A stretch of 32,000 nt of DNA from Microcystis aeruginosa NIES-843. GTDB lineage: Bacteria; Cyanobacteriota; Cyanobacteriia; Cyanobacteriales; Microcystaceae. A program made the translations under genes and the position numbers. Position 1 is the stretch's first letter. Every line of letters begins with the position of its first letter. Location of the stretch: the NCBI RefSeq assembly GCF_000010625.1, contig NC_010296.1, positions 390,001 to 422,000 of the forward strand, given 5' to 3'. Below are positions 3,693-32,000 of this stretch, in pieces. Under the pieces are notes generated by a model. The model searched no databases and was not told the origin of the DNA. It was given only the letters and a program-made list of their open reading frames with translations.

Positions 3693-4222
3693 TGACACCG
3701 CAAAACTGGTTAGGGCGCACTTTTAACCCTTTAAAAGCCAAAATTAGCAATGATCCCTATTATCGCTTTCGTTCCCTTGATGAGATCGCTATGGCGGCGC
3801 AATTGGGCATTAAAATTAATGTCAGTCAAGCGGGTGTGGATGATTGGCTGCGATTGCCGGGGATATCCATCCATCAAGCGCGAATGTTGGTGGAATTGTC
3901 GGGTATGGGGGTAGAATTGCTTTGTCTCGAAGATCTAGCGGCTGCTTTGAGTGTTCCTGTGGCTAGATTGAAAGCTTGGGAGCCGATTCTAGAATTTGCC
4001 TATTATAGTCGGGAAAGTCACCTCGCACCCCCTAAAATCAATCCTAACACCGCTTCGATCGAGCAGTTAACCACCTTACCCCTAATCAGCGATAATTTGG
4101 CAGCTGCCATTATTAAAAATAGAGAAGAACAGGGATTATTTAAGAATATTGTGGATTTTAAAGGGCGTTTATCCCTAGACGCTCAGGAAATCTCCCAATT
4201 AATGCACTTTTTCCAGTTTTAA
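3692..4222 (+). CDS. ComEA-like helix-hairpin-helix DNA-binding protein
   Basis: 176 aa with two HhH-type units (WLRLPGISIHQARMLVE; INPNTASIEQLTTLPLISDNLAAAIIKNREEQGLF). Translationally coupled to the upstream ORF. Confidence 0.65.
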   Translation: MTPQNWLGRTFNPLKAKISNDPYYRFRSLDEIAMAAQLGIKINVSQAGVDDWLRLPGISIHQARMLVELSGMGVELLCLEDLAAALSVPVARLKAWEPILEFAYYSRESHLAPPKINPNTASIEQLTTLPLISDNLAAAIIKNREEQGLFKNIVDFKGRLSLDAQEISQLMHFFQF

Positions 4223-4235
4223 TCCCAAATACTCA

Positions 4236-4406
<171 letters not shown>

Positions 4407-4423
4407 TTATTTTTATTTATTCT

Positions 4424-4546
4424 CCCCATTTCCCCACTTCCCCAATTCCCCACTTCCCCAATTCCCCACTTCCCCACTTCCCCACTTCCCCACTTCCCCA
4501 CTTCCCCATTTCCCCACTTCCCCACACTCCACTTCCCCACTTCCCA
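4424..4546. repeat. octamer tandem array CCCCACTT / CCCCAATT / CCCCATTT (G-rich on the gyrA sense strand)
   Basis: About 15 consecutive 8-nt units, each starting with CCCC. It ends 7 nt before the gyrA stop codon (4553-4555). A short related fragment occurs at 19077-19100 in inverse orientation. Confidence 0.9.
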
Positions 4547-4552
4547 GCAAAT

Positions 4553-13240: not shown

Positions 13241-13630
13241 ATGTCAGATTTGAACGATGTTTTCGCAATTGTAGCCGGAGCGGTTCCGGGGGCGTTATCT
13301 CGTTATCATATTACCGAATGGACAAAAGCAAAATTCGGCTTGCGCTTTCCCTATGGAACCTTTATTATTAATTTAACTGGCTGTCTAGCTATCGGCTTTT
13401 TTTGGGCTATTTTACCCAGTTTTACCTTTTATTCCCACCAACTAGATTTAATGGTGAGAACGGGATTTTTAGGAGCTTATACCACCTTTTCTACCTATAG
13501 TTTAGATATCCTGATCCTCTGGCGCAATCAACAAAATTTTCTCAGTCTTTTTTTTGCCTTTGCTAGTATAATTTTCGGATTGATTGCCGTGAGAATCGGG
13601 GCAGCTATTGCCCAAGTTTTTCTAGGTTAA
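13241..13630 (+). CDS. crcB: fluoride channel CrcB/FluC, paralog 1
   Basis: 129 aa, four TM segments, with the signature GFLGAYTTFSTYSLD. Confidence 0.9.
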   Translation: MSDLNDVFAIVAGAVPGALSRYHITEWTKAKFGLRFPYGTFIINLTGCLAIGFFWAILPSFTFYSHQLDLMVRTGFLGAYTTFSTYSLDILILWRNQQNFLSLFFAFASIIFGLIAVRIGAAIAQVFLG

Positions 13631-13735
13631 GTAGGTAGGCGTTAAAAACTATCAGATGCCCCCCTTATCAAGGGGGGATTAAGGGGGGATCGAACCTAAA
13701 ATCCATTTTTAATTTAATTATAACCAGCTACTTAA
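13627..13735. mobile_element. TTAAGT-ended MITE, short variant (copy A)
   Basis: TTAAGTAGGTAGGCGTTAAAAACTATCAGATGCCCCCCTTATCAAGGGGGG...AACCAGCTACTTAA. Both arms match copy B (21432-21575) in inverse orientation. It starts inside the crcB stop codon. Confidence 0.75.
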
Positions 13736-14180: not shown

Positions 14181-14313
14181 ATTATTCAATAGATTTTGCG
14201 TCTGATCCCCCCTGCCCCCTTAATAAGGTGGGTGCCGATAGGCGGGGGGATCCCCCCTTAATCCCCCCTTGATAAGGGGGGCATCTGACAACTTTTAACA
14301 CCTAACTACTTAA
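14181..14313. mobile_element. TTAAGT-ended MITE with full palindromic module (copy C, left arm truncated)
   Basis: GATCCCCCCTGCCCCCTTAATAAGGTGGGTGCCGATAGGCGGGGGGATC, then CCCCCCTTGATAAGGGGGG...AACACCTAACTACTTAA. It begins immediately after the crcB paralog 2 stop. Confidence 0.7.
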
Positions 14314-14359
14314 GCATCTCAGCACAATTGAGACTATCTTTTTCCTTTCCTACTCAGTC

Positions 14360-15045: not shown

Positions 15046-15232
15046 GGCTCTTCGGTAATTGTTATGCAATGGACGGGGGTTATAAGGGATGGAACCCTTA
15101 TATAGAAAGGCGTTTAGCGATTTTTGTCAATTGTTTTTGATCTAAAGCGAACTCATCAATTAAGTCTTTTGCCAGATAAGGATTTAGTCAATTTATGCCC
15201 CCCTATCGAACCATACCAAGTAACGAAGAGCC
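15046..15232 (+). mobile_element. 187-bp MITE with ISL3-like terminal inverted repeats (copy 1)
   Basis: TIRs are GGCTCTTCGGTAA... and ...TAACGAAGAGCC. The 8-bp TSD ATAATTTA lies at 15038-15045 and 15233-15240. No ORF. About 85% identical to the inverted copy at 30617-30802. Confidence 0.88.
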
Positions 15233-16350
15233 ATAATTTAATTAATCTCGGTATCTACGAACAGGTCGAGAAAGCTGTCAGCGAATCGGGATTAAAACTA
15301 GAAGAATTAATTGCCCAGGAAGAAGAACCGGGGTTAGGAAATGGTGGTTTAGGTCGTTTAGCTGCCTGTTATCTCGATTCCCTTTCTACCCTAGAAATTC
15401 CGGCTATTGGTTACGGTATTCGCTACGAATTTGGTATCTTTGATCAAGAAATTCACGACGGTTGGCAGGTGGAAATAACCGATAAGTGGTTACAGTATGG
15501 AAATCCCTGGGAAATTGCCCGACCGGAAGCGGGAGTAGAGGTAAAATTTGGCGGTTATACCGAATCCTATACCGACGAAAATGGTAATTATCGCAGTCGT
15601 TGGATTCCCGATTATGTAGTCAAAGGAATTCCCTACGATACCCCAATTCTCGGCTATCGAGTTAACACCGCTAATACCATGCGTCTATGGAAGTCAGAAG
15701 CTTGTGAATCTTTTGATTTTGGACGCTTTAATCGCGGCGATTATTATGGTGCGGTGGATAATAAAGTTCACTCGGAAAATATCAGTAAAGTTCTCTATCC
15801 TAACGATGAACCAATTCAAGGCAAAGAACTGCGTTTAGAACAGCAATATTTCTTTGTTTCCTGTTCCCTACAGGATCTGATTCGTATTCACTTACATGAG
15901 AACCCCAGTCTCGATAATTTTCATCAAAAATGGTCAGTACAATTGAATGATACTCACCCTTCCGTCGGGGTAGCCGAGTTAATGCGCTTGTTAATTGACG
16001 TGCATCATTTCGATTGGGATAAAGCTTGGTTTATTACTCAAAATACCTTCGCCTATACTAATCATACTCTTTTGCCAGAAGCTTTAGAAAAATGGCCTTT
16101 GAGTATTTTTGGTCGTCTTTTACCGCGATTAATGGAAATTATCTACGAAATTAACCATCGTTTCTTGGATAAAATTCGCATTATTTATCCCCATGATGAC
16201 GGCAAAATGTCCCGTTTGTCTATAATCGATGAAAGTGGCGAAAAATACGTCCGTATGGCTCACCTCGCCTGTGTGGGTTCCCAGGCAATTAACGGGGTGG
16301 CAGCCCTGCATACAGAATTACTGAAAAAAGATGTTCTGCGCGATTTCTAT

Positions 16351-17713
16351 TGGGACTTAAACAAATTTCAAGCCCAAACAAAGCCTAAACTGGCTTTGTA
16401 AGCGGCAAACACATCCCGATTCTCGGTCAGCCACTCAAAGAAACGGAAAGACATCGCTGTCCGAAAAGCTTCCAAGGCTTCCACAAAAGTGTTTAAAGGT
16501 CGATTCGCCCACTGCCTTTGCAATCCCCCAGTTAACTTATGCCACAGGATAAATGTATAGGCACAAAACACCAGGATAAAATGACGAAGTAAGCTTCGTT
16601 TATCCCTGACTTGATATTCCCTTAACCCTAACCATCCTTTGGCTTCTCGGTAGAATACTTCCACCCAATTTCTTTCGGTGTAAGTCCTCACTATCCACGA
16701 AGCTGTTACTGTATCTGCCTCAACTACATTGGTGATGAAATAGTCCACCTCTGTGGCTTTTTCCATTGAACTTGCATTCATGACGATCGCCAAGTTCCTT
16801 TCTCCTTCTAGTTGAGATATTTTCGCTCTGAATACCGCTACCCAAACCGTTTTTTCTTTATCTAGATTTAGGGTGATTTTCTCCCAATCCTTTTCTGATA
16901 GGCTTTTTGCTAGTTGCTCAAGCTGGATTGTTTCTTCCACACCCCCTTCTTTTTCAATAATTACTTTTCGATTTTTTGCCAATCCTCCTAAGTATTTTAG
17001 CTTTCTTTCTTCCAGGGCTTTGAGAAAATTTGTGTTGTTGCCATAACCAGCATCTATTAAGACGATTTTCGGTCGATAGCCTCTGGTTAAGCTCCGGTCA
17101 ATTAAATCTATCGCTATCTCTGGTTTCTTCTTAAATTCTTTGTCTTCTTTCCCCTCGGCTAAGGAACTAGCCGGTTGATAAATTTCAATGTCTAGGGGGA
17201 CACTTTTTTTGCCGTCGTAGAGATGGGTAGTGACGGCGACTATTCCGTTGTCTGTCTTGCCAATTTCTCCTAGGTACTGCCTGCCAACTCCGGCGGTCAG
17301 ATTGCCACTTTTTCGATGTCCTGAGTCATCGACAATCAGGGAAAATCCTCGGGGGATTTGCGTCTGGCGGCATTGGTTCATCACTTGCAACCGACATTCA
17401 TTCACCTGACGGTCTGACCAGGGAGATTCGGTCAAAAAGTGATGTAATCGGTTATAAACTACTCCGACGGCATTATTGGCAATTTGAGTGAGGTTTTTCC
17501 TCTCACTTTCCCCTAATAATCCTCCTAAATATTGTCTGAAGCCGTTTTTTTGCGCTTCGTTTTTGAAGCAATTGTCAAACCGCCGACACCATCGGTCAAA
17601 GCATGGGGGCATCGCGGCTGGGGTTGTCTCTTTCATCGCTGATCTTTCAACGTAAAGTGCTTACTCTTTAACGATTATACTCGATTTGATCTTTATTTGG
17701 CGTTTAAGTCCCA
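16351..17713 (-). mobile_element. IS701-family-like insertion sequence (1363 bp), complete
   Basis: TIRs are TGGGACTTAAAC (16351-16362) and its complement (17702-17713). The 4-bp TSD CTAT lies at 16347-16350 and 17714-17717. It holds a single transposase ORF. Confidence 0.9.
16368..17636 (-). CDS. DDE transposase (IS701-like, IS4 superfamily)
   Basis: 422 aa. The N-terminus F..W..RF...F......GFRQYLGGLLGESERKNLTQIA is typical of IS701-family transposases as I remember them. DDE candidates: VDDSGHRK, VLIDAGYGN, YTERNWVEVFYREAK. Confidence 0.85.
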   Translation of the reverse strand: MKETTPAAMPPCFDRWCRRFDNCFKNEAQKNGFRQYLGGLLGESERKNLTQIANNAVGVVYNRLHHFLTESPWSDRQVNECRLQVMNQCRQTQIPRGFSLIVDDSGHRKSGNLTAGVGRQYLGEIGKTDNGIVAVTTHLYDGKKSVPLDIEIYQPASSLAEGKEDKEFKKKPEIAIDLIDRSLTRGYRPKIVLIDAGYGNNTNFLKALEERKLKYLGGLAKNRKVIIEKEGGVEETIQLEQLAKSLSEKDWEKITLNLDKEKTVWVAVFRAKISQLEGERNLAIVMNASSMEKATEVDYFITNVVEADTVTASWIVRTYTERNWVEVFYREAKGWLGLREYQVRDKRSLLRHFILVFCAYTFILWHKLTGGLQRQWANRPLNTFVEALEAFRTAMSFRFFEWLTENRDVFAAYKASLGFVWA

Positions 17714-18855
17714 CTATGAACTCTTTCCCGAAAAGTTTAGCAACAAAACCAATGGGGTTACTCCCCGGCGCTGGATAGTTTCTAGTAATCCCCGCTTAAC
17801 TTTTGCAATTACCGAAAAAATCGGCGAAAATTGGATTAAACATCTGGAGGATTTACGCGGTTTAGAAAACTATGTGGATGATGGAGTATTTCGGGACTAT
17901 TGGCGACGAATTAAATACGATATTAAGGCAGATTTAGCCAATTATATCGATAAAAAAGTCGGCATTAAAGTTGATCCTAGTACCCTCTTTGATGTGCAGG
18001 TAAAACGCATTCATGAATATAAACGACAACACCTCAACGTTTTACACATCGTTACTCTCTATCATCGTCTCAAAAATAACCCCAATCTCGATATTACCCC
18101 CCGTACCTTTATTTTTGGTGGTAAGGCAGCCCCGGGTTATTTTATGGCGAAATTAATCATTAAATTGATTAATTCTGTGGCGGAAGTGATTGATAATGAT
18201 CCGACGATTGGAGGACGTTTAAAAGTGGTTTTCCTCCCCGATTATAATGTCACCTTCGGTCAACGGGTTTATCCAGCTGCCGACTTGTCCGAACAAATTT
18301 CCACCGCCGGGAAAGAAGCTTCGGGAACTGGTAATATGAAATTCTCTATGAATGGGGCCTTAACTATCGGTACTCTCGATGGGGCAAATATCGAAATTCG
18401 TGAAGAGGTGGGGGCGGAAAATTTCTTTCTTTTTGGCTTGACAACCGAGGAGGTTTATGCTAAGAAAGCCGCCGGTTATAATCCCCAAGAATACTATTAC
18501 CATAACGAAGAATTGCGGGCAGTATTAGACCTCATTGGTTCGGGATTTTTTAGCCGGGGTGATAGTAGTTTATTCCGCCCGCTTGTGGATAATCTTATCT
18601 ACAATGATCCCTATATGTTACTGGCCGATTATCAATCCTATATCGACTGTCAGGAAGGAGTCGGTCACGCTTATAAAGATCAAGAACATTGGAGTCGTTT
18701 AGCGATTCTTAATGTGGCCCGCATGGGAAAATTCTCTAGCGATCGCTCGATTCGGGAATACTGCGAGAAAATCTGGCGGGTACAACCGGTAAAGATTGAA
18801 TTACCCGATTATACTCAAGCTAATGCCGGTTTATCGGTAAATTAGAACCAATCTA

Positions 18856-21431: not shown

Positions 21432-21575
21432 TTAAGTAGCTGGTTATAATTAAATTAAAAATCGATTTTAGGTTCGATCCCCCCTGCCCCCCTTGATAAG
21501 GTAGGGTTGATTCATGAATCAACCCTACCCTTGATAAGGGGGGTGTCTGATAATTTTTAACGCCTACCTACTTAA
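21432..21575. mobile_element. TTAAGT-ended MITE (copy B) with a nested 28-nt perfect palindrome
   Basis: TTAAGTAGCTGGTTATAATTAAATT...GATCCCCCCTGCCCCCCTTGATAAG, then GTAGGGTTGATTCATGAATCAACCCTAC, then CCTTGATAAGGGGGGTGTCTGATAA...CCTACCTACTTAA. Confidence 0.8.
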
Positions 21576-21746
21576 GTACAATCAAGAAAAATTATCAAAT
21601 TTCCCAATCGTTATTTGCCCTTGCCATTGATCAAATCTATTGTCATCATAGACTAAAATCTAGATGTAGCCGATGTCTAGATATCGATCGAGCCAGAATT
21701 GTTATGATAAATTCATGAAGTTTTATAACGGTATTTCCCCGTGAAC

Positions 21747-22740: not shown

Positions 22741-22926
22741 CTACTGTCCGAATTCTATTCTAGCCTGTTCTACCATTTCCACGGTAACTCGATCGGAACC
22801 GGCATGACGAGCTAATTCTTCTATCCTTTGACGCGCTTGGGAACGAACAAAATAGGGAATATTTTTCAGTTTTGCTTTTGCTTCTGCGGTCCATTGTAGT
22901 TGATCGGAAAAATCTAGAGCTTCCAT
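22741..22926 (-). CDS. small PCP-reductase-family protein (similar to the C-terminal domain of protochlorophyllide reductase subunit B)
   Basis: 61 aa. [30 protein letters not shown] matches my recollection of that small domain family. Confidence 0.65.
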
Positions 22927-23752
22927 AGATTTAACATATAGTAGTCCGTCTATTATACCAAAAAAGATTAGCTATTTATTAAAAAGCTGATTAAATGATG
23001 AGTTTCTTGATAGCGACCTTTTCCTGCTCAATTCCGTTCTCAATCTCTTTCACCTTTCTTTTAATTTTAGGTTTCTGCTAGGTCGAAATTGACTCTTTGA
23101 TATAAATCTTGAAAAGAAATCTGCCAATCCACCGACACCAATTGTAAAACCGCATTTTCCCCCGTGACGAAATCAATTAACCATTGATCATCCTTTTGTT
23201 TATAGTAAAGTTCCACACTATAACTAGATTGTTCGATCAGAATATATTCCTGAAAAGTTGGCAAGGAACGATAGAATTTAAACTTATCCCCTCGGTCATA
23301 AGCTTGGGTAGAATTAGAGAGAACTTCGACAATAATTAAAGGATTGATCACGTTAGATTGACTATTCCCTTGATAGAGAGGTTGACCTTTAATCACCATC
23401 ACATCGGGATAGGTGTAAATACTATAATCTGACAGCCATAAACGCACCGTTTCCATGTAGGTATAATAATCTTGATTATTGATAGTCAGAGGAAATCTTC
23501 GATAGAAGTTTCCAGCAATCTGATTGTGATTAGTGGTAGCTCCTACCATTGGGATAATTTCTCCTTGACGATATTCATTTTTATCTTCGGACGTTTCCTC
23601 CAGAGCTAGATATTCTTCGGGAGTATAATATTTAGTTTCGGTAGCGCTTAACATTTTTGACTCTCCTTCCTATTCTATTTTCTAGGATACAGCATTTCCC
23701 TAAAAAGAGACAAAGTTATCCTTGAGGAAGGTTATCAATTGAGTGGCTCGGA
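22829..23752. repeat. tandem segmental duplication, unit 1 (924 bp)
   Basis: Collinear with 23784-24674. Covers the 5' third of the PCP-reductase-like gene, the intergenic region, an Uma2 gene and its upstream region. Confidence 0.9.
23067..23654 (-). CDS. Uma2-family (DUF820) putative endonuclease, copy 1
   Basis: 195 aa. YTPEEYLALEETSEDKNEYRQGEIIPM and DVMVI...PLIIVEVLSNST...D...K...Y fit the PD-(D/E)xK-like Uma2 pattern common in cyanobacteria. Confidence 0.85.
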   Translation of the reverse strand: MLSATETKYYTPEEYLALEETSEDKNEYRQGEIIPMVGATTNHNQIAGNFYRRFPLTINNQDYYTYMETVRLWLSDYSIYTYPDVMVIKGQPLYQGNSQSNVINPLIIVEVLSNSTQAYDRGDKFKFYRSLPTFQEYILIEQSSYSVELYYKQKDDQWLIDFVTGENAVLQLVSVDWQISFQDLYQRVNFDLAET

Positions 23753-23783
23753 AAAGTGTATCTTAAATATCTCAGTAATCCGC

Positions 23784-23875
23784 TGACGCGCTTAGGAACG
23801 AACAAAATAGGGAATATTTTTTAGTTTTGCTTTTGCGGTCCATTGTAGTTGATCGGAAAAATCTAGAGCGTCCGT
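23784..23875 (-). pseudogene. duplicated 5' fragment of the PCP-reductase-like gene, start codon lost
   Basis: Matches 22829-22926 but carries a 6-nt deletion, and ATG has become ACG (CAT at 22924-22926 against CGT at 23873-23875). Confidence 0.7.
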
Positions 23876-23988
23876 AGATTTAACAATAGTAGTCCGTCTA
23901 TTATACCAAAAAAGATTAGCTATTTATTGCCAAGCTAATTAAATGATGAGTTTCTTGATAGCGACTCTTTTTCACCTTTCTTTTAATT

Positions 23989-24576
23989 TTAGGTTTCTGC
24001 TAGGTCGAAATTTACTCTTTGATATAAATCTTGAAAAGAAATCTGCCAATCTACCGACACCAATTGTAAAACCGCATTTTCCCCCGTGACGAAATCAATT
24101 AACCATTGATCATCCTTTTGTTTATAGTAACGTTCCACACTATAACTAGATTGTTCGATCAGAATATATTCCTGAAAAGTTGGCAAGGAACGATAGAATT
24201 TAAACTTATCCCCTCGATCATAAGCTTGGGTAGAATTGGAGAGAATTTCGACAATAATTAAAGGATTGATCACGTTAGATTGACTATTGCCTTGATAGAG
24301 AGGTTGACCTTGAATCACCATCACATCGGGATAGGTGTAAATGCTATAATCTGATAGCCATAAACGCACCGTTTCCATATAGGTATAATAATCTTGATTA
24401 TTGATATTTAAGGGAAAATTACGGCAAAAATTTAGACAAATCTGATTGTGATTAGTGGTGGCTCCTACCATTGGGATAATTTCTCCTTGACGATATTCAT
24501 TTTTATCTTCGGATGTTTCCTCCAGAGCTAGATATTCTTCGGGAGTATAATATTTAGTTTCAGTAGCGCTTAACAT
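23989..24576 (-). CDS. Uma2-family (DUF820) putative endonuclease, copy 2
   Basis: 195 aa, with 10 substitutions relative to copy 1. Six of them cluster at residues 47-58 (IAGNFYRRFPLTIN versus ICLNFCRNFPLNIN). Confidence 0.85.
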   Translation of the reverse strand: MLSATETKYYTPEEYLALEETSEDKNEYRQGEIIPMVGATTNHNQICLNFCRNFPLNINNQDYYTYMETVRLWLSDYSIYTYPDVMVIQGQPLYQGNSQSNVINPLIIVEILSNSTQAYDRGDKFKFYRSLPTFQEYILIEQSSYSVERYYKQKDDQWLIDFVTGENAVLQLVSVDWQISFQDLYQRVNFDLAET

Positions 24577-26251: not shown

Positions 26252-27052
26252 ATGCAAACGACAATTACAGTTAGTCATCTAGGAGTATATTATCGCGGCG
26301 TGGAAGCCCTACGGGATATCACCCTGAAAATTCATCCAGGACGATTAACCGGTATTATCGGTCCCAACGGTGCGGGCAAAAGTACCCTGATCAAAGCCAT
26401 GCTAGGATTAATTCCCGTACAACAGGGAACCGTTAACTATCAAGGGCAATCTCTACAGCAACAACTGGATAAAGTCGCTTATGTTCCCCAAAGATCTCAA
26501 ATCGACTGGACCTATCCCGTCACCGCTTGGGATGTGGTAATGATGGGGAGAGTCAGAAAAACGGGTTGGTTTCGTCCTTTTTCCCATATTAGTCGTCAAC
26601 AGGCTTTAAATGCCCTAGAACGGGTGGAAATGGCTGATTTACGCCATCGTCCCCTCGGTCAGCTGTCGGGGGGACAACAGCAAAGAGTCTTTTTAGCCAG
26701 ATCTTTGGCCCAAGAAGCGGAGATTTTCTGTTTTGATGAACCTTTCGTTGGGGTAGATCAAAAAACCGAGGGGGTTCTTTTTAATATCTTTGGTGAGTTA
26801 GCCCAAGAAAATAAAATTGTCATGGTGGTTAACCATGATTTAGGCGAATCTATCAGCCATTTTGCTGATTTAATCCTCTTAAATAAAGAATTGATCCTCG
26901 CCGATCAACGATCTAAGGTCTTAACTGATTTTAATCTCCGGCGTGCCTATGGGGGTAAAGTCTCCTTCTACGATGCCATGACACCACCAGATCATCGCCG
27001 ATCGAGTCTCGATTATCTCGATCGCTTCTCGAAAAACAATGCGATAAACTAG
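26252..27052 (+). CDS. metal (Mn/Zn-type) ABC transporter ATP-binding protein
   Basis: Walker A GPNGAGKST, signature LSGGQQQR, Walker B IFCFDEP. The IDWTYPVTAWDVVMMG region is typical of ZnuC/MntA-like ATPases. No adjacent permease or binding protein in the window. Confidence 0.85.
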   Translation: MQTTITVSHLGVYYRGVEALRDITLKIHPGRLTGIIGPNGAGKSTLIKAMLGLIPVQQGTVNYQGQSLQQQLDKVAYVPQRSQIDWTYPVTAWDVVMMGRVRKTGWFRPFSHISRQQALNALERVEMADLRHRPLGQLSGGQQQRVFLARSLAQEAEIFCFDEPFVGVDQKTEGVLFNIFGELAQENKIVMVVNHDLGESISHFADLILLNKELILADQRSKVLTDFNLRRAYGGKVSFYDAMTPPDHRRSSLDYLDRFSKNNAIN

Positions 27053-27091
27053 AAGCGAAGATATTTTGGCTGACTGCCGATAGGGACACCA

Positions 27092-27508
27092 ATGACAACT
27101 ATTTCCCCGCAAGAAGTAACAGGAACGATCGAACTGGCTCCTAACTATCGAATTCCCCTGTTTTTGGTAATTTTATCGCTGCCTTTACTCTTTTTACAGG
27201 TCTGGCTCGGAATAATTTTCTCCCTGTTAGGGCTATTCTTGATGTTCCAGACTACCCGCATTCGTCTCCAGTTTACCCCCACTTCCTTAGATGTCTATCT
27301 GTCCGGGCAACAAATTCGCTCCTTTCCCTACCAAGAATGGCAAAATTGGCGTATTTTCTCGAATAAAGTCCCGATCCTATTTTATTTCAAAGAAATTAAC
27401 AGCATTCATTTTTTGCCCATTATCTTTGACAGCGCAACCCTGAGACTCTGCCTCGAAAAATACTATCCTTTAGCAGCATCGCAAGCGATCGACTCAGAAG
27501 CGAACTAA
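27092..27508 (+). CDS. hypothetical membrane protein (138 aa)
   Basis: Two adjacent hydrophobic helices (IPLFLVILSLPLLFLQVWLGIIFSLLGLFLMF). Probably a conserved cyanobacterial DUF; name not verified. Confidence 0.55.
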   Translation: MTTISPQEVTGTIELAPNYRIPLFLVILSLPLLFLQVWLGIIFSLLGLFLMFQTTRIRLQFTPTSLDVYLSGQQIRSFPYQEWQNWRIFSNKVPILFYFKEINSIHFLPIIFDSATLRLCLEKYYPLAASQAIDSEAN

Positions 27509-27542
27509 GATTGAGATAAAATAAAATCTGGCTAATAGCGTT

Positions 27543-27663
27543 TTAAGTGGGTAGGTGTTAAAAATTGTCAGATCCCCCCGCCTATCGGCACCCCCCTTAT
27601 CAAGGGGGGCAGGGGGGATCAAAGGCAAGATATATCGTCTATTAATTAGAACCACTTACTTAA
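27543..27663. mobile_element. TTAAGT-ended MITE with full palindromic module (copy D)
   Basis: TTAAGTGGGTAGGTGTTAAAAATTGTCAGATCCCCCCGCCTATCGGCACCCCCCTTATCAAGGGGGGCAGGGGGGATC...GAACCACTTACTTAA. The module is the near-exact reverse complement of 14205-14253 (two small differences in copy C). Confidence 0.75.
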
Positions 27664-27706
27664 TTGCCTGCCTTGGCCCTTTGTTCGCTCTGCATTTCTA
27701 AAGCCG

Positions 27707-28987
27707 ATGAATTCAGAAGATTTTAATGTTTTACCCCTTGACAAAATGACAGACTTACCCAATGAATCTGTCGAAGAATTTAGTTTTGACGATCTCTGGA
27801 ACGATCGCCCAGTAGAGAATCCGCTGCCATCGGCAATCGCCCCCGAAGGCGAATTAGTTCCCGCAGCGCAGGCGCAACCCCTGCGGGCAGAAATCGAGGC
27901 TCTAGAACGGCAAAAACAGAGCCTAGCGGCAGAAATATCGGCGTTAAAAGCGGAAAAAGAACGCTTGATCGCCGAGGAACTAGGAGATATCAAAGCTCAA
28001 ATCGAAAGAATGCTCAAGGAAGGCGTAAAAGACCTAGAACAACGCAAACAGGCTTTAGAATTGGCGATCGAACAGTTAGAACGCCGTCGTGAGCGTATTC
28101 GGCAGGAAATGCGGAGTAATTTCGCCGGAGTCTCCCAGGACATAGCCGTGCGGGTTCAGGGATTTAAAGACTATCTGGTGGGCAGTTTACAGGATTTGGC
28201 TGCGGCTGCCGAACAGTTGGAATTACCCCGTTTTGAAACCCCCGAAAAATCCCCCCGCTCCGTGGAACCTCCCCTGCGGACCGAACGGGAGGAAAACCCG
28301 CGCCCATCCCGTGGCAGTCAAGGCCGGGATGATCGCGAAGAAAGTCCCCGTCCTTCCCGCACCAGTAACCAAGGCCGGGATAATTGGCAAGAACCCCGTC
28401 GTTCTAACCGTTCCGGTTATGAATCGGAACCGGTGGGGCAATCCACCCCTAGACAGGGCTTTTCTGACCAAAATCAGCGCATCCAAGCTCTTTTAGACCG
28501 TTATCGCAGTCGTCCTGATTATTACGGTCCCCCTTGGCAACTACGGCGCACTTTTGAACCAATTCACGCCGAACGGGTGCAACAGTGGTTCTTTAAACAG
28601 GGAGGCCGGGGTACTGTTCGCGGTATGGGCAGCCGTCTCCAGAATATTCTGGTCGCTTCGGCAATTATCTCGATTATGGCGGAATTACAGGGCGATCGCT
28701 TCCGTTCTCTAGTTCTGGCTAATAGTCCCGAACGTTTAGGCGAATGGCGGCGCGGCCTCCAAGATTGTCTCGGCATTTCCCGCGCCGATTTTGGACCAGA
28801 CCGCGGCATCGTTCTCTTTGAGTCTCCCGAAGCTTTAATTCAAAAAGCGGAACGTTTAATCGAGGATAAGTATTCACCGCTCATTATCATCGATGATACC
28901 GAAGAACGGCTCAATTTCGCTCTTTTACAATTCCCCTACTGGTTAGCTTTTGCCCCTGAACCCCAACAAAGTTCTAGTTATTGGTAA
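27707..28987 (+). CDS. coiled-coil protein with Arg/Pro-rich internal repeat and conserved C-terminal domain (hypothetical)
   Basis: 426 aa. Heptad-like region AEIEALERQKQSLAAEISALKAEKERL...; repeat EENPRPSRGSQGRDDR / EESPRPSRTSNQGRDN; globular C-terminus. Family name not verified. Confidence 0.6.
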   Translation: MNSEDFNVLPLDKMTDLPNESVEEFSFDDLWNDRPVENPLPSAIAPEGELVPAAQAQPLRAEIEALERQKQSLAAEISALKAEKERLIAEELGDIKAQIERMLKEGVKDLEQRKQALELAIEQLERRRERIRQEMRSNFAGVSQDIAVRVQGFKDYLVGSLQDLAAAAEQLELPRFETPEKSPRSVEPPLRTEREENPRPSRGSQGRDDREESPRPSRTSNQGRDNWQEPRRSNRSGYESEPVGQSTPRQGFSDQNQRIQALLDRYRSRPDYYGPPWQLRRTFEPIHAERVQQWFFKQGGRGTVRGMGSRLQNILVASAIISIMAELQGDRFRSLVLANSPERLGEWRRGLQDCLGISRADFGPDRGIVLFESPEALIQKAERLIEDKYSPLIIIDDTEERLNFALLQFPYWLAFAPEPQQSSSYW

Positions 28988-29087
28988 GTACCTAAGCAAA
29001 ATTAATTACACATCTAAGCCACTACTCCGTCAGACTTCTGGTGTGAGGAAACAGTGAACTGAAAACTCAAATCCGATCCCTAATAGC

Positions 29088-29139
29088 TGTCTCCCGTCTC
29101 CCGTCTCGGAGTCTCCTGTCTCGGAGTCTCCTGTCTCGA
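29088..29139. repeat. short tandem repeats (GTCTCCC / GTCTCGGAGTCTCCT units)
   Basis: tgtctcccgtctcccgtctcggagtctcctgtctcggagtctcctgtctcg. Related, in reverse complement, to the AGGAGAC units at 4236-4406. Confidence 0.85.
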
Positions 29140-29232
29140 CTAGGAAATTAATTTTGCACGACTACTTATTAACTAATTAGGGTCTGCGGCAAAAAGTTTT
29201 TCCTGGGGGCAGGGTGTAGGGTGTAGGGTGTG

Positions 29233-30106
29233 GTGCGATTCGTTGGCTAGAAACTAGACAGTAAGACGTTTAGAGGATTAGCCGCTTGGTAAATGTAGTA
29301 CCTTGATAACTTTATAACCCTACAGGTGCGGGTTAGTAATAACCTTAGTCCTGTCCTCTAGATGCCTAGAGTGACGGCATTTCCTGCTGCTTTAGACTTG
29401 GTACATCTGAGGTAGTGAGCGAGGAAAAAAAAGCGGTATCTGATAGCCTAAATCAGAAACCCGTTGAGCCAGAACCTATGGATAGCCCTGGGGCGAAGAT
29501 ACGAATTAACCATCGTCAACACCCACGAGCCAAAAGGCTGACAGGCTCGAAACAAAAGTTAACAGAGTTGGGGCTGATAGCTCATACCACTATCAGTAAG
29601 GCATTCCCGTTACTCTGTTGTGGACAGTATCATCCTAAGGGTTCAACCAATGGTTATAGGGAACGAAGTAACCCTGATTGACTCTGCCCGTTCGGGGCAG
29701 TAGGAAACCATCCGCAAGTCAATAGAGGGAGAGGATGTCCTTAAAAGCCAAGGCTTTGAGTAATATCAAAGATATGCTGACAAAGGACGGGTAACTAGGA
29801 AGTCTAAGCAACAATCAACGGTCATAAGCTAAACGGCGCTTAACCTGCATGATCCAATAGCTATAACTCTTTTGGAGTCTATATCGGTGATCCGAAGTAA
29901 AAGCCGTTTAGCTTATACGCCCTAAAACCAACAATCTTGTCTGGTGGGGATACAGCCAAGAGGGTTGAATAGACAAGGAAATAATAATTCCCATTATTAT
30001 TCTACTAATGACAGTAGCCTAGTTACTCAGGAGCCGGATACGGCGAAAGTCGTAAGTCCGGTTTTGAAGCAGGGGGTGGGAAGGCGACTTCCTGCTCTAC
30101 TGTAAC
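29233..30106 (+). ncRNA. ORF-less group II intron ribozyme (copy 1, complete)
   Basis: 5' GUGCG at 29233. Domain V at 30031-30064 (GAGCCGGAUACGGC-GAAA-GUCGUAAGUCCGGUUU: AGC triad, 9 bp, AA bulge, 5 bp, GNRA loop). Domain VI at 30070-30102 with bulged A 30099, 7 nt from the ...AC 3' end at 30106. Tetraloop receptor halves UAUGG 29477-29481 and CCUAAG 29634-29639, closed by GAACC/GGUUC. No RT ORF. Confidence 0.8.
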
Positions 30107-30616
30107 GGGTTTTACCGATTTTGAGGTGGTCAATTACCTAATTTTCAGGGAAAAAGTACCTGAATTTTCCCCCCGATCACTCCCATGCCAGGCACTTTTT
30201 GATTTCAAAAAAGCCTAAAGATATTATCCAACAAGGTTTTTAGATTTATTCAGCAAACCCTAAATATTTTACACAATTCATACCAGGTAAGCAAGAGGGC
30301 TACACCACTACTACCGAATCATTACCCGCCCTCTTTGAACAACTTCTGCTGCTCACCATAAGTGAGAGAAAATCACAAATAGGAGATGCACCCGGTTATG
30401 CCTGCTACGAATAAAGAAAAATGGTATTAGTTTTCCTTACGGGGGGGATATAGCTTAAAACGGGTGATTTCTCGGTTATCCAAGCGGTAAACTTTGATTG
30501 AGGATCAATTGGGGACGTAAGCGACGGAGTTTGCGTCTCTTTGTTATAATTCAAAGGCTAGGCTATAATAAATCTTCATAAACACCGATAATTTTAGTCA
30601 AAGATGTAAAAAAAGG

Positions 30617-30802
30617 GGTTCTTCGTTACTTGGTATGGTTCAATAGGGGGGCATAAATCGACTAAATCCTTATCTGGCAAGAGACTTAATTGATTAGTTC
30701 GCTCTAGATCGAAAACAATTGACATAAATCCCCGAATGTCTTTCTATATAAGAGTTTCATTCCTTGTAACCCTGTCCGTTGCATAAGACAAACCGAAGAA
30801 CC
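30617..30802 (-). mobile_element. 186-bp MITE with ISL3-like TIRs (copy 2, inverted relative to copy 1)
   Basis: GGTTCTTCGTTAC...CCGAAGAACC. The 8-bp TSD AAAAAAGG lies at 30609-30616 and 30803-30810. About 85% identical to the reverse complement of 15046-15232. Confidence 0.88.
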
Positions 30803-30854
30803 AAAAAAGGAAGATCATGATTGTGAGAGCGTGTAATTAGTATAATTAAAGTAA

Positions 30855-31052
30855 AAATCATTGGGAGCATCTCACCTTTGCAATGAGCATAAATACTTAG
30901 TGGAAAAATAGGCTTTTCGAGGGTAATTCTTGTTTTAATTCTCCATGTACGCAGTCTTTAAAAGCCTCTATTTCGTTCCAAGACACGATTAAGAGTGGCT
31001 TTTAGGCTAAGTATAATTACTTATCGCGTAAGTGAGATGCTCCCAAATCATT
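30855..31052. repeat. inverted-repeat-bounded segment upstream of the antitoxin gene
   Basis: TGGGAGCATCTCAC (30862-30875) is a perfect inverted repeat of GTGAGATGCTCCCA (31032-31045), with partial extension to about 20 nt. The interior holds only a short minus-strand ORF fragment (...SWNEIEAFKDCVHGELKQELPSKSLFFH*). Confidence 0.35.
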
Positions 31053-31063
31053 CCAAGGTAGCC

Positions 31064-31264
31064 ATGATTAAAAACATTAATGTAACTGGACTTAAACCTG
31101 AACAAATTCAGCAGATACAAGCAATTATTGCCGCATTTAAAGCTCAAAATCAACTCAATAAAAGTGAAACTGAAATTGATATGATTGAATACCTGTTGGA
31201 AAATCCTATAGAGGTTGATAATTTAGAATTTATGAAACGAGAAGAAATTTATGACAGAACTTAA
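31064..31264 (+). CDS. putative antitoxin of a PIN-toxin pair
   Basis: 66 aa from ATG 31064; the track ORF extends upstream through non-ATG codons. It overlaps the PIN gene by 14 nt, the typical type II TA arrangement. Confidence 0.55.
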   Translation: MIKNINVTGLKPEQIQQIQAIIAAFKAQNQLNKSETEIDMIEYLLENPIEVDNLEFMKREEIYDRT

Positions 31265-31613
31265 AAATCATAGTTGTTTTGTTGATTCTAATATTTGGCT
31301 TTATGCTTTTTCCACTGATAAAAGAGAAGAAAGTAAAAGAATATTGGCAAAACAATTAATTAAAGAAAAGTCCATCATTATTAGTACCCAAATAATTAAT
31401 GAGGTTTCTTGTAATTTACTTAAAAAGCATAAGCTTGATGAAAAACAACTGTTTAAATTAATTGTTTCCTTTTATAGCAAATATCAAGTTATCTCATTTA
31501 ATCTTGATATTTTTGAATCTGCATATAATCTGAGAACTCAATATCATCTATCATTTTGGGATAGTTTAGTGATTGCTTGCGCTTCATTTTCTGATGCAAA
31601 TATTGGGACTTAA
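31251..31613 (+). pseudogene. vapC: PIN-domain toxin (VapC-like), 3'-truncated by IS insertion at 31604
   Basis: PIN acidic residues occur in FVDSNIWLYA, IINEVS and FWDSLVIA. The region that normally carries the last acidic residue is missing. The final codons and the stop (..I GT*) are supplied by the IS terminal repeat TGGGACTTAAAC. Confidence 0.7.
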
Positions 31614-31793
31614 ACGATCAACAAGAGTATAATAGAGTATAATTGTTATAGAATAAGCACTTTACGTTGAAAGAGCGGCGATGAAAGAGACAACCCCAGC
31701 TGCGATGCCTCCCTGCTTTGACCGATGGTGTCGGCGGTTTGACAATTGCTTCAAAAACGAAGCGCAAAAAAACGGCTTCAGACAATATTTAGG
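31604..31793 (+). mobile_element. IS701-family-like IS, second copy, 5' 190 bp only
   Basis: It starts with the same TIR TGGGACTTAAAC. ATG at 31681 encodes MKETTPAAMPPCFDRWCRRFDNCFKNEAQKNGFRQYLG, identical to the first 38 aa of the 16368-17636 transposase. Homology stops abruptly at 31793/31794. Confidence 0.88.
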
Positions 31794-31843
31794 GTCTGCT
31801 GAAAAAGTTTTTCCTAGGGGCAGGGTGTAGGGTGTGGGGTGTG

Positions 31844-32000
31844 GTGCGATTCGTTGGCTAGAAACTAGACAGTAAGACGTTTAGAGGATTAGCCGCTTGG
31901 TAAATGTAGTACCTTGATAACTTTATAACCCTACAGGTGCGGGTTAGTAATAACCTTAGTCCTGTCCTCTAGATGCCTAGAGTGACGGCATTTCCTGCTG
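31844..32000 (+). ncRNA. ORF-less group II intron, copy 2 (5' 157 nt; runs off the window)
   Basis: 31844-32000 is identical base for base to 29233-29389, and is preceded by the same 50-52 nt leader with 4 differences. Confidence 0.8.

Follow-up and report, generated by a model that had tools for sequence, protein, structure and literature searches.

Probable stepwise nesting of an insertion sequence, a miniature inverted-repeat element and an ORF-less group II intron at a vapBC locus of Microcystis aeruginosa NIES-843

How did the 3' end of a toxin gene come to be replaced by pieces of several repeated elements, and in which order did these arrive? The question is raised by a stretch of 32,000 nucleotides of Microcystis aeruginosa NIES-843 (contig NC_010296.1, positions 390,001 to 422,000, forward strand), here called the window and numbered from its first letter. 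Near its right end the vapC gene of a vapBC toxin-antitoxin operon gives way to the left end of an insertion sequence (IS), the IS to a leader of 52 nucleotides (nt), and the leader to a group II intron within which the window ends (site B); the same intron stands behind a second copy of the leader 2.6 kb upstream (site A). An earlier note on this DNA described three nested levels, with leader and intron inserted into the IS as one unit. The nesting at the left junctions stands, but the leader is the left part of a MITE (miniature inverted-repeat transposable element), and intron-free versions of both sites exist. Site B has four levels, vapC, IS, MITE and intron, and these were very probably built up as a stack of independent mobile-element insertions. 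IS elements and MITEs together make up about 12% of Microcystis genomes (PMC2779907).

The closest complete genome is that of M. viridis NIES-102 (AP019314.1, locus L006 in our comparisons). Across 27000-31844 its chromosome is 99.75-100% identical to the window, minus three insertions that are present in the window only. A 426-residue DUF3086 protein encoded at 27707-28987 has identical copies in NIES-102 and in another Microcystis record, HE973759.1 (L007). The window stops 157 nt inside the intron of site B; beyond it, the remaining intron sequence, the right part of the MITE and the continuation of the IS are predicted from NIES-102. Exact-protein matches of the truncated VapC, VapB and the DUF3086 protein comprised short contigs of this strain and the NIES-102 chromosome only, and scans of viral contigs for an extension of the window gave no match. 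Modelled on NIES-102, the sequence past 32000 should contain the remainder of the intron, then GGGTGTGGGGTTTTACC..., the right part of the MITE, TATTTAGG and the rest of the IS.

The leader occupies 29180-29232 at site A (53 nt) and 31792-31843 at site B (52 nt), both on the forward strand. At site B its 52 nt hold the terminal repeat GGGTCTGCTG..., a segment A5GT5 that resembles a hairpin, and GGGTGTR heptamers in three copies. Three substitutions and one indel separate the two leaders (4 of 53 positions), in agreement with the earlier note, which had placed them in the region of 29181 and after 31793 and had counted the same four differences. In loci that lack the intron, position 29232 is joined to 30107, so the leader forms a unit with the 154 nt on the 3' side of the intron at site A (30107-30260, forward strand), which are the 3' exon of that intron and end in ...CAGCAAACCC. 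The whole element measures 207-212 base pairs (bp) and has inverted ends, GGGTCTGCTG... and ...CAGCMARCCC. At site B of NIES-102 it is uninterrupted (13022-13233 of L006) and stands between the two copies of the duplicated IS sequence TATTTA(GG); in HE973759.1 the target duplication is TAATTA. Three loci hold full copies with terminal inverted repeats, and at least 12 hold full or partial ones. Because an element with inverted ends recurs at other loci, leader and right part together are classified as a MITE from their sequence features: the element is non-autonomous, shorter than 600 bp, free of a transposase, multi-copy, and bears terminal repeats and a target duplication. An autonomous partner IS of this MITE was not found, the terminal-repeat matches in locus L025 being a truncated MITE beside unrelated open reading frames (ORFs). 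The MITE of site A is 85.8% identical to the site B MITE of NIES-102.

The intron is complete at site A (29233-30106, forward strand, 874 nt) and runs from GTGCG to CTGTAAC; at site B its first 157 nt are present (31844-32000, forward strand), likewise starting with GTGCG. The 157 nt are identical in the two copies (31844-32000 versus 29233-29389). Group II introns are characterized by a catalytic domain V and a domain VI with a bulged branch-point A close to the 3' end, by a 5' GUGYG, a 3' AY and precise excision, and by pairing of exon-binding sites (EBS) in domain I with intron-binding sites (IBS) in the 5' exon; the mobile retroelement form encodes a reverse transcriptase/maturase in domain IV. 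The Rfam model RF00029 for domains V-VI matches 30029-30106 over its full length (1-77) with 55 bits (gathering score 40) and E = 2e-8. The ends, GTGCG at 29233 and ...GTAAC at 30106, are set by the empty sites, and the first 22 nt are common to 110 cyanobacterial loci in species-representative genomes. A related full-length intron in locus L050 encodes a protein of 578 residues, homologues of which carry reverse-transcriptase, maturase and HNH domains. Copy A contains no reverse-transcriptase ORF, and a tblastn search with the 578-residue protein gave no match in it better than E = 1.8. Judged by these matches, the Microcystis intron is an ORF-less form that is still a group II intron, and in the absence of an ORF a reverse transcriptase/maturase from another intron would have to act in trans.

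Intron copy A itself holds an insertion, a mini-MITE of 88 bp (29826-29913, forward strand) that ends in the terminal repeats AGCTAAACGGC / GCCGTTTAGCT and has duplicated a TA. It is exactly absent from the intron copy in locus L128, stands alone and TA-flanked in HE973759.1 (12261-12352 of L007, 98.9% identical), and forms a strong hairpin (z = -4.4). The intron may still be mobile with this mini-MITE inside. Other Microcystis genomes retain internally deleted remnants of the intron without domain V (L025 4695-4850, L039 514-906, L120 6285-6676); with 94-99% identity in their 5' parts and a position at sites of the heptamer type, they are traces of older, decayed invasions. Related full-length introns of other cyanobacteria (L050 516-4289; L033, L088, L098, L100 and L107) seem to interrupt the 3' ends of TnpB-like (IS605 OrfB) genes, as judged from the upstream ORF and the exons only.

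Intron-free versions of the sites bear on how the intron came to its positions. At site A, 29232 is joined to 30107 in six loci, namely NIES-102 (L006), HE973759.1 (L007) and four metagenomes (L008, L010, L012 and L013), with flanks that are 98.9-100% identical to the window; site B is also intron-free in NIES-102. The leader without its intron, for which the earlier note had advised a search, is accordingly present at both sites in NIES-102 and at site A in five further contigs. Since the MITE copies of the two sites are about 14% apart and the introns within them are identical over the 157 nt visible in both, the intron insertions are recent and independent: had the introns been of the age of the MITE copies, about 22 differences would be expected in 157 nt, and none is observed. 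In one Microcystis metagenome-assembled genome (MAG), moreover, nine contigs end about 100 nt into 99%-identical intron copies at different sites, which indicates ongoing spread. On these comparisons the intron arrived recently and separately at sites A and B, in line with the earlier suggestion that leader and intron have different histories and that an older repeat recently received the intron. It is polymorphic between strains with flanks of more than 99.7% identity.

The same empty sites could be read in the opposite direction, with the intron ancestral at both sites and precisely lost in other strains, for example by recombination with the cDNA of a spliced transcript. Precise intron loss is a known process, and the empty sites are exact exon junctions, as it would leave them. 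At site A, however, six independent loci are empty, and only the window and its own population (locus L009) carry the intron; the intron copies are identical over 157 nt in MITE copies that have drifted 14% apart, and the MAG with its nine sites speaks for spread. Ancestral presence with repeated loss is therefore very unlikely.

A second doubt concerns the junctions themselves, which might be assembly artefacts among multi-copy repeats: IS, MITE and intron all occur in many copies, short-read contigs of the same populations break inside them, and the window ends within the intron. Yet the junctions recur in independent sequences. The succession of vapC, IS and MITE is found in the complete NIES-102 chromosome (99.75% identical) and in contigs L002-L005, of which L004 matches window positions 31159-31817 at 100% identity, its 3' end aligned across the junctions of vapC, IS and leader. 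The junction of leader and intron at site B appears in L001, which runs 43 nt into the intron (in noisy sequence), and L009 reproduces site A, the junction of MITE and intron included, at 100% identity. As the metagenome contigs L001, L004 and L009 reproduce the junctions, and as the intron boundaries of both sites obey a target rule seen in other genomes, an assembly artefact is highly unlikely.

A composite unit, in which leader and intron would have travelled together as a 5'-extended intron, an intron with a carried exon, or an IS200/IS605-like element inserted 3' of TTAGG with no duplication, has in its favor that both copies start at TTAGG|G beside unrelated left flanks and that the leader contains the A5GT5 hairpin-like segment. 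The shared junction, which the earlier note had reported correctly, is explained by the terminal GGG of the MITE standing against a target that ends in TA, with TTTAGG at site B contributed by the IS. Leaders without an intron, joined to the conserved right part of 154-160 nt, occur at both sites of NIES-102 and in five loci for site A, and at about half of the inspected Microcystis sites the intron has no leader beside it. The element inserted in the IS is bounded by terminal inverted repeats and duplicated its target, and the leaders have diverged whereas the introns are identical as far as both are visible. The composite reading is refuted by the empty sites and is given next to no weight. 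An IS200/IS605-type element and a class C intron preceded by a hairpin are ruled out by the empty sites, the inverted ends of the MITE and the duplication.

The flanks of the intron copies indicate what the intron recognizes. Fifteen copies of the Microcystis type were available: copies A and B of the window, L128, the nine contig ends of the MAG and the three deleted remnants. The copies follow a GGGTGTRGGGTGTR-like sequence, with GGGTGT at -14 to -9 in all 15 and at -7 to -2 in 13. Inspection of the flanks places about half of the copies within the MITE and the others in plain (GGGTGTR)n tracts or elsewhere; the intron is thus not tied to the MITE. Within the MITE the site lies in the internal (GGGTGTR)n tract, and at site A the intron follows a different heptamer than at site B and in L128, in the latter two of which one heptamer is left in the 3' exon. 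GGGTGTRGGGTGTR occurs four times in the window, all in the two leaders, against 0.02 expected; these offer only two such sites, and both are occupied. That the intron was carried as passive cargo of the MITE by DNA transposition, rather than by retrohoming, is barely credible: about half of its copies do lie in this MITE family, whose terminal repeats a transposase could use, but both MITE copies pre-date the intron (they are empty in NIES-102) and are 14% apart with identical visible introns, the heptamer used at A differs from that used at B and in L128, and about half of the copies stand in no MITE.

A pairing with such targets can be predicted. The sequence CATACC at 29583-29588 (forward strand, intron positions 351-356), in the 9-nt loop capping an 8-bp hairpin, is complementary to exon positions -6 to -1 (GGTGTG) and is the predicted EBS1; ACACCC at 29519-29524 (forward strand, intron positions 287-292), predicted to be single-stranded, is complementary to -14 to -9 (GGGTGT) and is the predicted EBS2. 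Among 50 related introns with differing exons, a complement to the intron's own exon hexamer lies in interval 325-392 in 44%, versus 6.5% for foreign exons (p ~1e-13), and this covariation places EBS1 in that interval. If the pairing is modelled correctly, every tandem pair of GGGTGTR units with GGG behind it would be a homing site, in a MITE or elsewhere. Long intergenic tandem arrays at 4212-4550, built of the 7-mers GGAGTCA and GGAGATA and of 8-mers (TCCCCACT and variants), have heptamers that differ from the target and are unoccupied.

The lower levels of site B are formed by the vapBC operon and the IS. A vapB-like antitoxin ORF of 66 residues (31064-31264, forward strand) looks intact and overlaps the start of vapC by 14 nt. 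It matched no family in Pfam or NCBIfam; identical proteins precede intact PIN genes of 142 residues in many Microcystis contigs (L130-L135). The native part of vapC spans 31251-31603 (forward strand), and its ORF continues to 31613 through IS-derived codons (G-T-stop). The resulting 120 residues match the Pfam PIN family (PF01850) with 44 bits against a cutoff of 23.6, covering profile positions 2-101 of 120 only. The closest homologue, P0001, is 96% identical and has 142 residues; most other full-length homologues have 140-145. DNA homology to the intact vapC loci L126 and L127 stops exactly at 31604; in intact loci, other genes stand 3' of vapC. The native protein would read on ...ANI|LYSEDMQDGLIINKKFTIINPFKQ (beginning LYSEDMQDG); about 25 codons are missing after a break at codon ~117. 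The set of four conserved acidic residues of PIN toxins is probably incomplete here, the segment LYSEDMQDGLIINKKFTIINPFKQ, which we take to hold the last of them (SED motif), being absent in comparison with intact P0001. The vapC of this strain is on this evidence a truncated member of the PIN family and probably an inactive remnant. Both the loss of the C-terminus at 31604 and the combination of an intact-looking antitoxin with an inactivated toxin had been remarked on in the earlier note. Weak Rfam matches to mir-963 and TEG147 at 31242-31537 are at chance level.

The IS fragment spans 31604-31791 (forward strand) and comprises the 12-bp terminal repeat TGGGACTTAAAC, starting at 31604, the 5' untranslated region and transposase codons 1 to ~37-38, with the ATG at 31681. 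The reverse complement of 17524-17717, where a complete copy of the IS has its left end, matches 31600-31793 at 90% identity. Homology can be read to 31793, since GG is common to the IS and the end of the MITE; the switch lies at 31791-31794, and the break after 188-190 bp agrees with the ~190 bp estimated earlier. The complete copy (16351-17713, reverse strand, 1363 bp) has TGGGACTTAAAC at both ends, encodes a transposase of 422 residues and stands in glgP, flanked by the 4-bp duplication ATAG. Members of the IS701 family have terminal inverted repeats, a 4-bp duplication and a length of ~1.4 kb. The transposase matches the IS701 equivalog NF033540 of NCBIfam with 343.5 bits (cutoff 150) and Pfam DDE_5 with 148 bits. 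By transposase, terminal repeats, duplication and length the IS is assigned to the IS701 family, as the earlier note had guessed for the element that cuts vapC.

At site B of NIES-102, IS positions 1-190 are followed by the MITE of 212 bp and then by IS positions 183-1363, so that the IS is complete there with 8 nt duplicated. Beyond its right end (...GTTTAAGTCCCA) come TTAAG and an IS630-like transposase gene that lacks its 5' part. The earlier note had made nested insertion depend on whether IS and vapC resume beyond the window: the IS does so in NIES-102, but the 3' end of vapC does not follow. In its first 190 nt (31604-31793 versus 17524-17713) the IS linked to vapC shares only 91% identity with the glgP copy, against 99.6% in the remaining 1181 nt, seen in NIES-102 (locus at L006 12834-14414); it may be a mosaic or recombinant, or its 5' untranslated region may evolve fast. 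The gene glgP (15124-18842) is split by the complete IS and is intact, with 844 residues, in NIES-102 and HE973759.1; glycogen phosphorylase GlgP is therefore probably missing in this strain.

The IS thus lies in vapC, the MITE in the IS and the intron in the MITE, and the order of events runs in the same direction. The oldest step was the entry of the IS701-family element into the vapBC operon, with its left end at vapC codon ~117. A MITE of ~210 bp then inserted into the 5' part of the IS, 188 bp from the IS end, duplicating TATTTA(GG). Finally the 874-nt intron entered the (GGGTGTR)n tract of the MITE, presumably by reverse splicing and reverse transcription (retrohoming), its predicted EBS1 loop CAUACC pairing with GGUGUG at -6 to -1 and EBS2 ACACCC with the neighbouring GGGUGU at -14 to -9, while a reverse transcriptase/maturase from another intron of the genome would act in trans. 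The same intron entered, independently, the 14%-diverged MITE copy 2.6 kb upstream at site A.

Several observations weigh against parts of this account. At the IS step, neither the 3' end of vapC nor its downstream neighbour is present in the 8 kb that follow the IS in NIES-102, and the vapC-linked IS of that genome shows no 4-bp duplication. The junction of vapC and IS is thus one-sided, which points to a deletion, or to recombination between IS copies, after the insertion, or else to something other than a simple insertion; as the junctions of vapC, IS and MITE are common to the window and NIES-102, the same loss to the right of the IS is likely in this strain too. At the MITE step, the target duplication is clear only at site B, and the flanks match imperfectly at site A and in L128. 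At the intron step, a metagenome scan with the expected 3' junction of the site B intron matched another MITE site (L128), not site B; the covariation test for EBS2 was not significant, so its assignment stays a prediction; and in about half of the target sites position -1 is an A, which mismatches the C of the predicted EBS1. Of thousands of cyanobacterial homologues of the 578-residue protein, none of the best 120 is named Microcystis, and this search revealed no reverse transcriptase/maturase of this strain; group II intron reverse transcriptases have been noted in Microcystis genomes (PMC11448079).

For annotation it follows that the leader is part of a MITE and not of the intron, that vapC is a dead remnant, probably without toxin activity, and that the IS is doubly disrupted. 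The locus gives the relative order of mobile-element events in a bloom-forming cyanobacterium, the plasticity of whose genome is ascribed to such elements. Whether the intron is a currently active ORF-less element specialised on a simple-sequence repeat is, in our estimate, evenly balanced; if it is, each genome would offer it dozens of sites where insertion does no harm, and MITEs could carry it along. It could serve as a marker of Microcystis strains, would be a natural case of repeats acting as safe havens, and provides a two-heptamer rule that can be tested.

Further repeats lie around the operon and elsewhere in the window. A MITE of 182 bp (30863-31044), with ends GGGAGCATCTCAC / GTGAGATGCTCCC and the 8-bp duplication AAATCATT at 30855-30862 and 31045-31052, stands 19 nt 5' of the start of vapB. 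It is absent from NIES-102 and was seen in this strain only; from its position it could affect the vapBC promoter. With 182 bp it is as long as MaeMITEc (PMC2779907), a likeness by length only. Another repeat of ~156-186 nt, 87-90% identical and inverted, lies 5' of glgP (15077-15232) and 5' of vapB (30617-30772), with counterparts in NIES-102 (L006 15495-15680) and HE973759.1 (L007 9462-9647); a further MITE family is the probable identity. One family of palindromic repeats rich in G+C (ATCCCCCCTGCCCCCCTTGATAAGGGGGG...GGCGGGGGGAT) stands in both orientations between genes at 2479-2573, 13627-13735, 14188-14314, 21432-21576 and 27543-27635. A Uma2-family gene is tandemly duplicated with its upstream region (22823-23343 and 23778-24265, the repeats being 93-98% identical), as it is in NIES-102; the two ORFs of 195 residues lie at 23067-23654 and 23989-24576.

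All parts of the locus are of known classes, and no new element type or mechanism is involved. The operon resembles the VapBC type II modules in having a small upstream ORF that overlaps a PIN-domain ORF, with full-length orthologues of 142 residues; it differs in a toxin that lacks ~25 C-terminal residues and in an antitoxin outside the Pfam and NCBIfam families. ISMae34, an IS701-family element of 1368 bp, has 32 copies in NIES-843 (PMC2779907), and the present IS, multi-copy and of about the same size (1363 bp), resembles it by size and family only; its vapC-linked copy in NIES-102 departs from such elements in lacking a matching 4-bp duplication. The MITE shares with the MaeMITE families, among them MaeMITEa of 219 bp and MaeMITEe of 212 bp (PMC2779907), the short non-coding sequence, the terminal inverted repeats and the many copies in Microcystis; compared by length only, it is unassigned to a named family, and it differs in carrying an internal heptamer tract that serves as intron homing site.

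Modestly new are the intron, for which searches of the full-text literature gave no description, and its apparent specialisation on heptamer repeats. An intron within a mobile element is itself familiar, RmInt1 in ISRm2011-2 reportedly being an example. Cyanobacterial introns without an ORF can be mobilised in trans, as demonstrated for Thermosynechococcus (PMC2882425). Like the TeI3 ORF-less introns of T. elongatus (Mohr, Ghanem & Lambowitz 2010, PMC2882425), the present intron is cyanobacterial and multi-copy, has lost its intron-encoded protein and presumably uses a reverse transcriptase in trans; unlike them, which home into the ORF of another intron or a unique intergenic site, it uses tandem (GGGTGTR)n, borne by a MITE or free, has no driver protein that was found and no ORF remnant, carries an 88-bp MITE in copy A and is known from sequence only. 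ORF-less introns are considered rare in bacteria, whose group II introns are commonly found among other mobile DNAs (PMC4424553). Compared with introns that home into such DNAs, the present one sits in a MITE inside an IS, an insertion that costs the host nothing, and its target is a simple-sequence repeat, not a unique sequence of the IS; with a target defined by a repeat, one intron can use both a MITE family and unrelated tracts.

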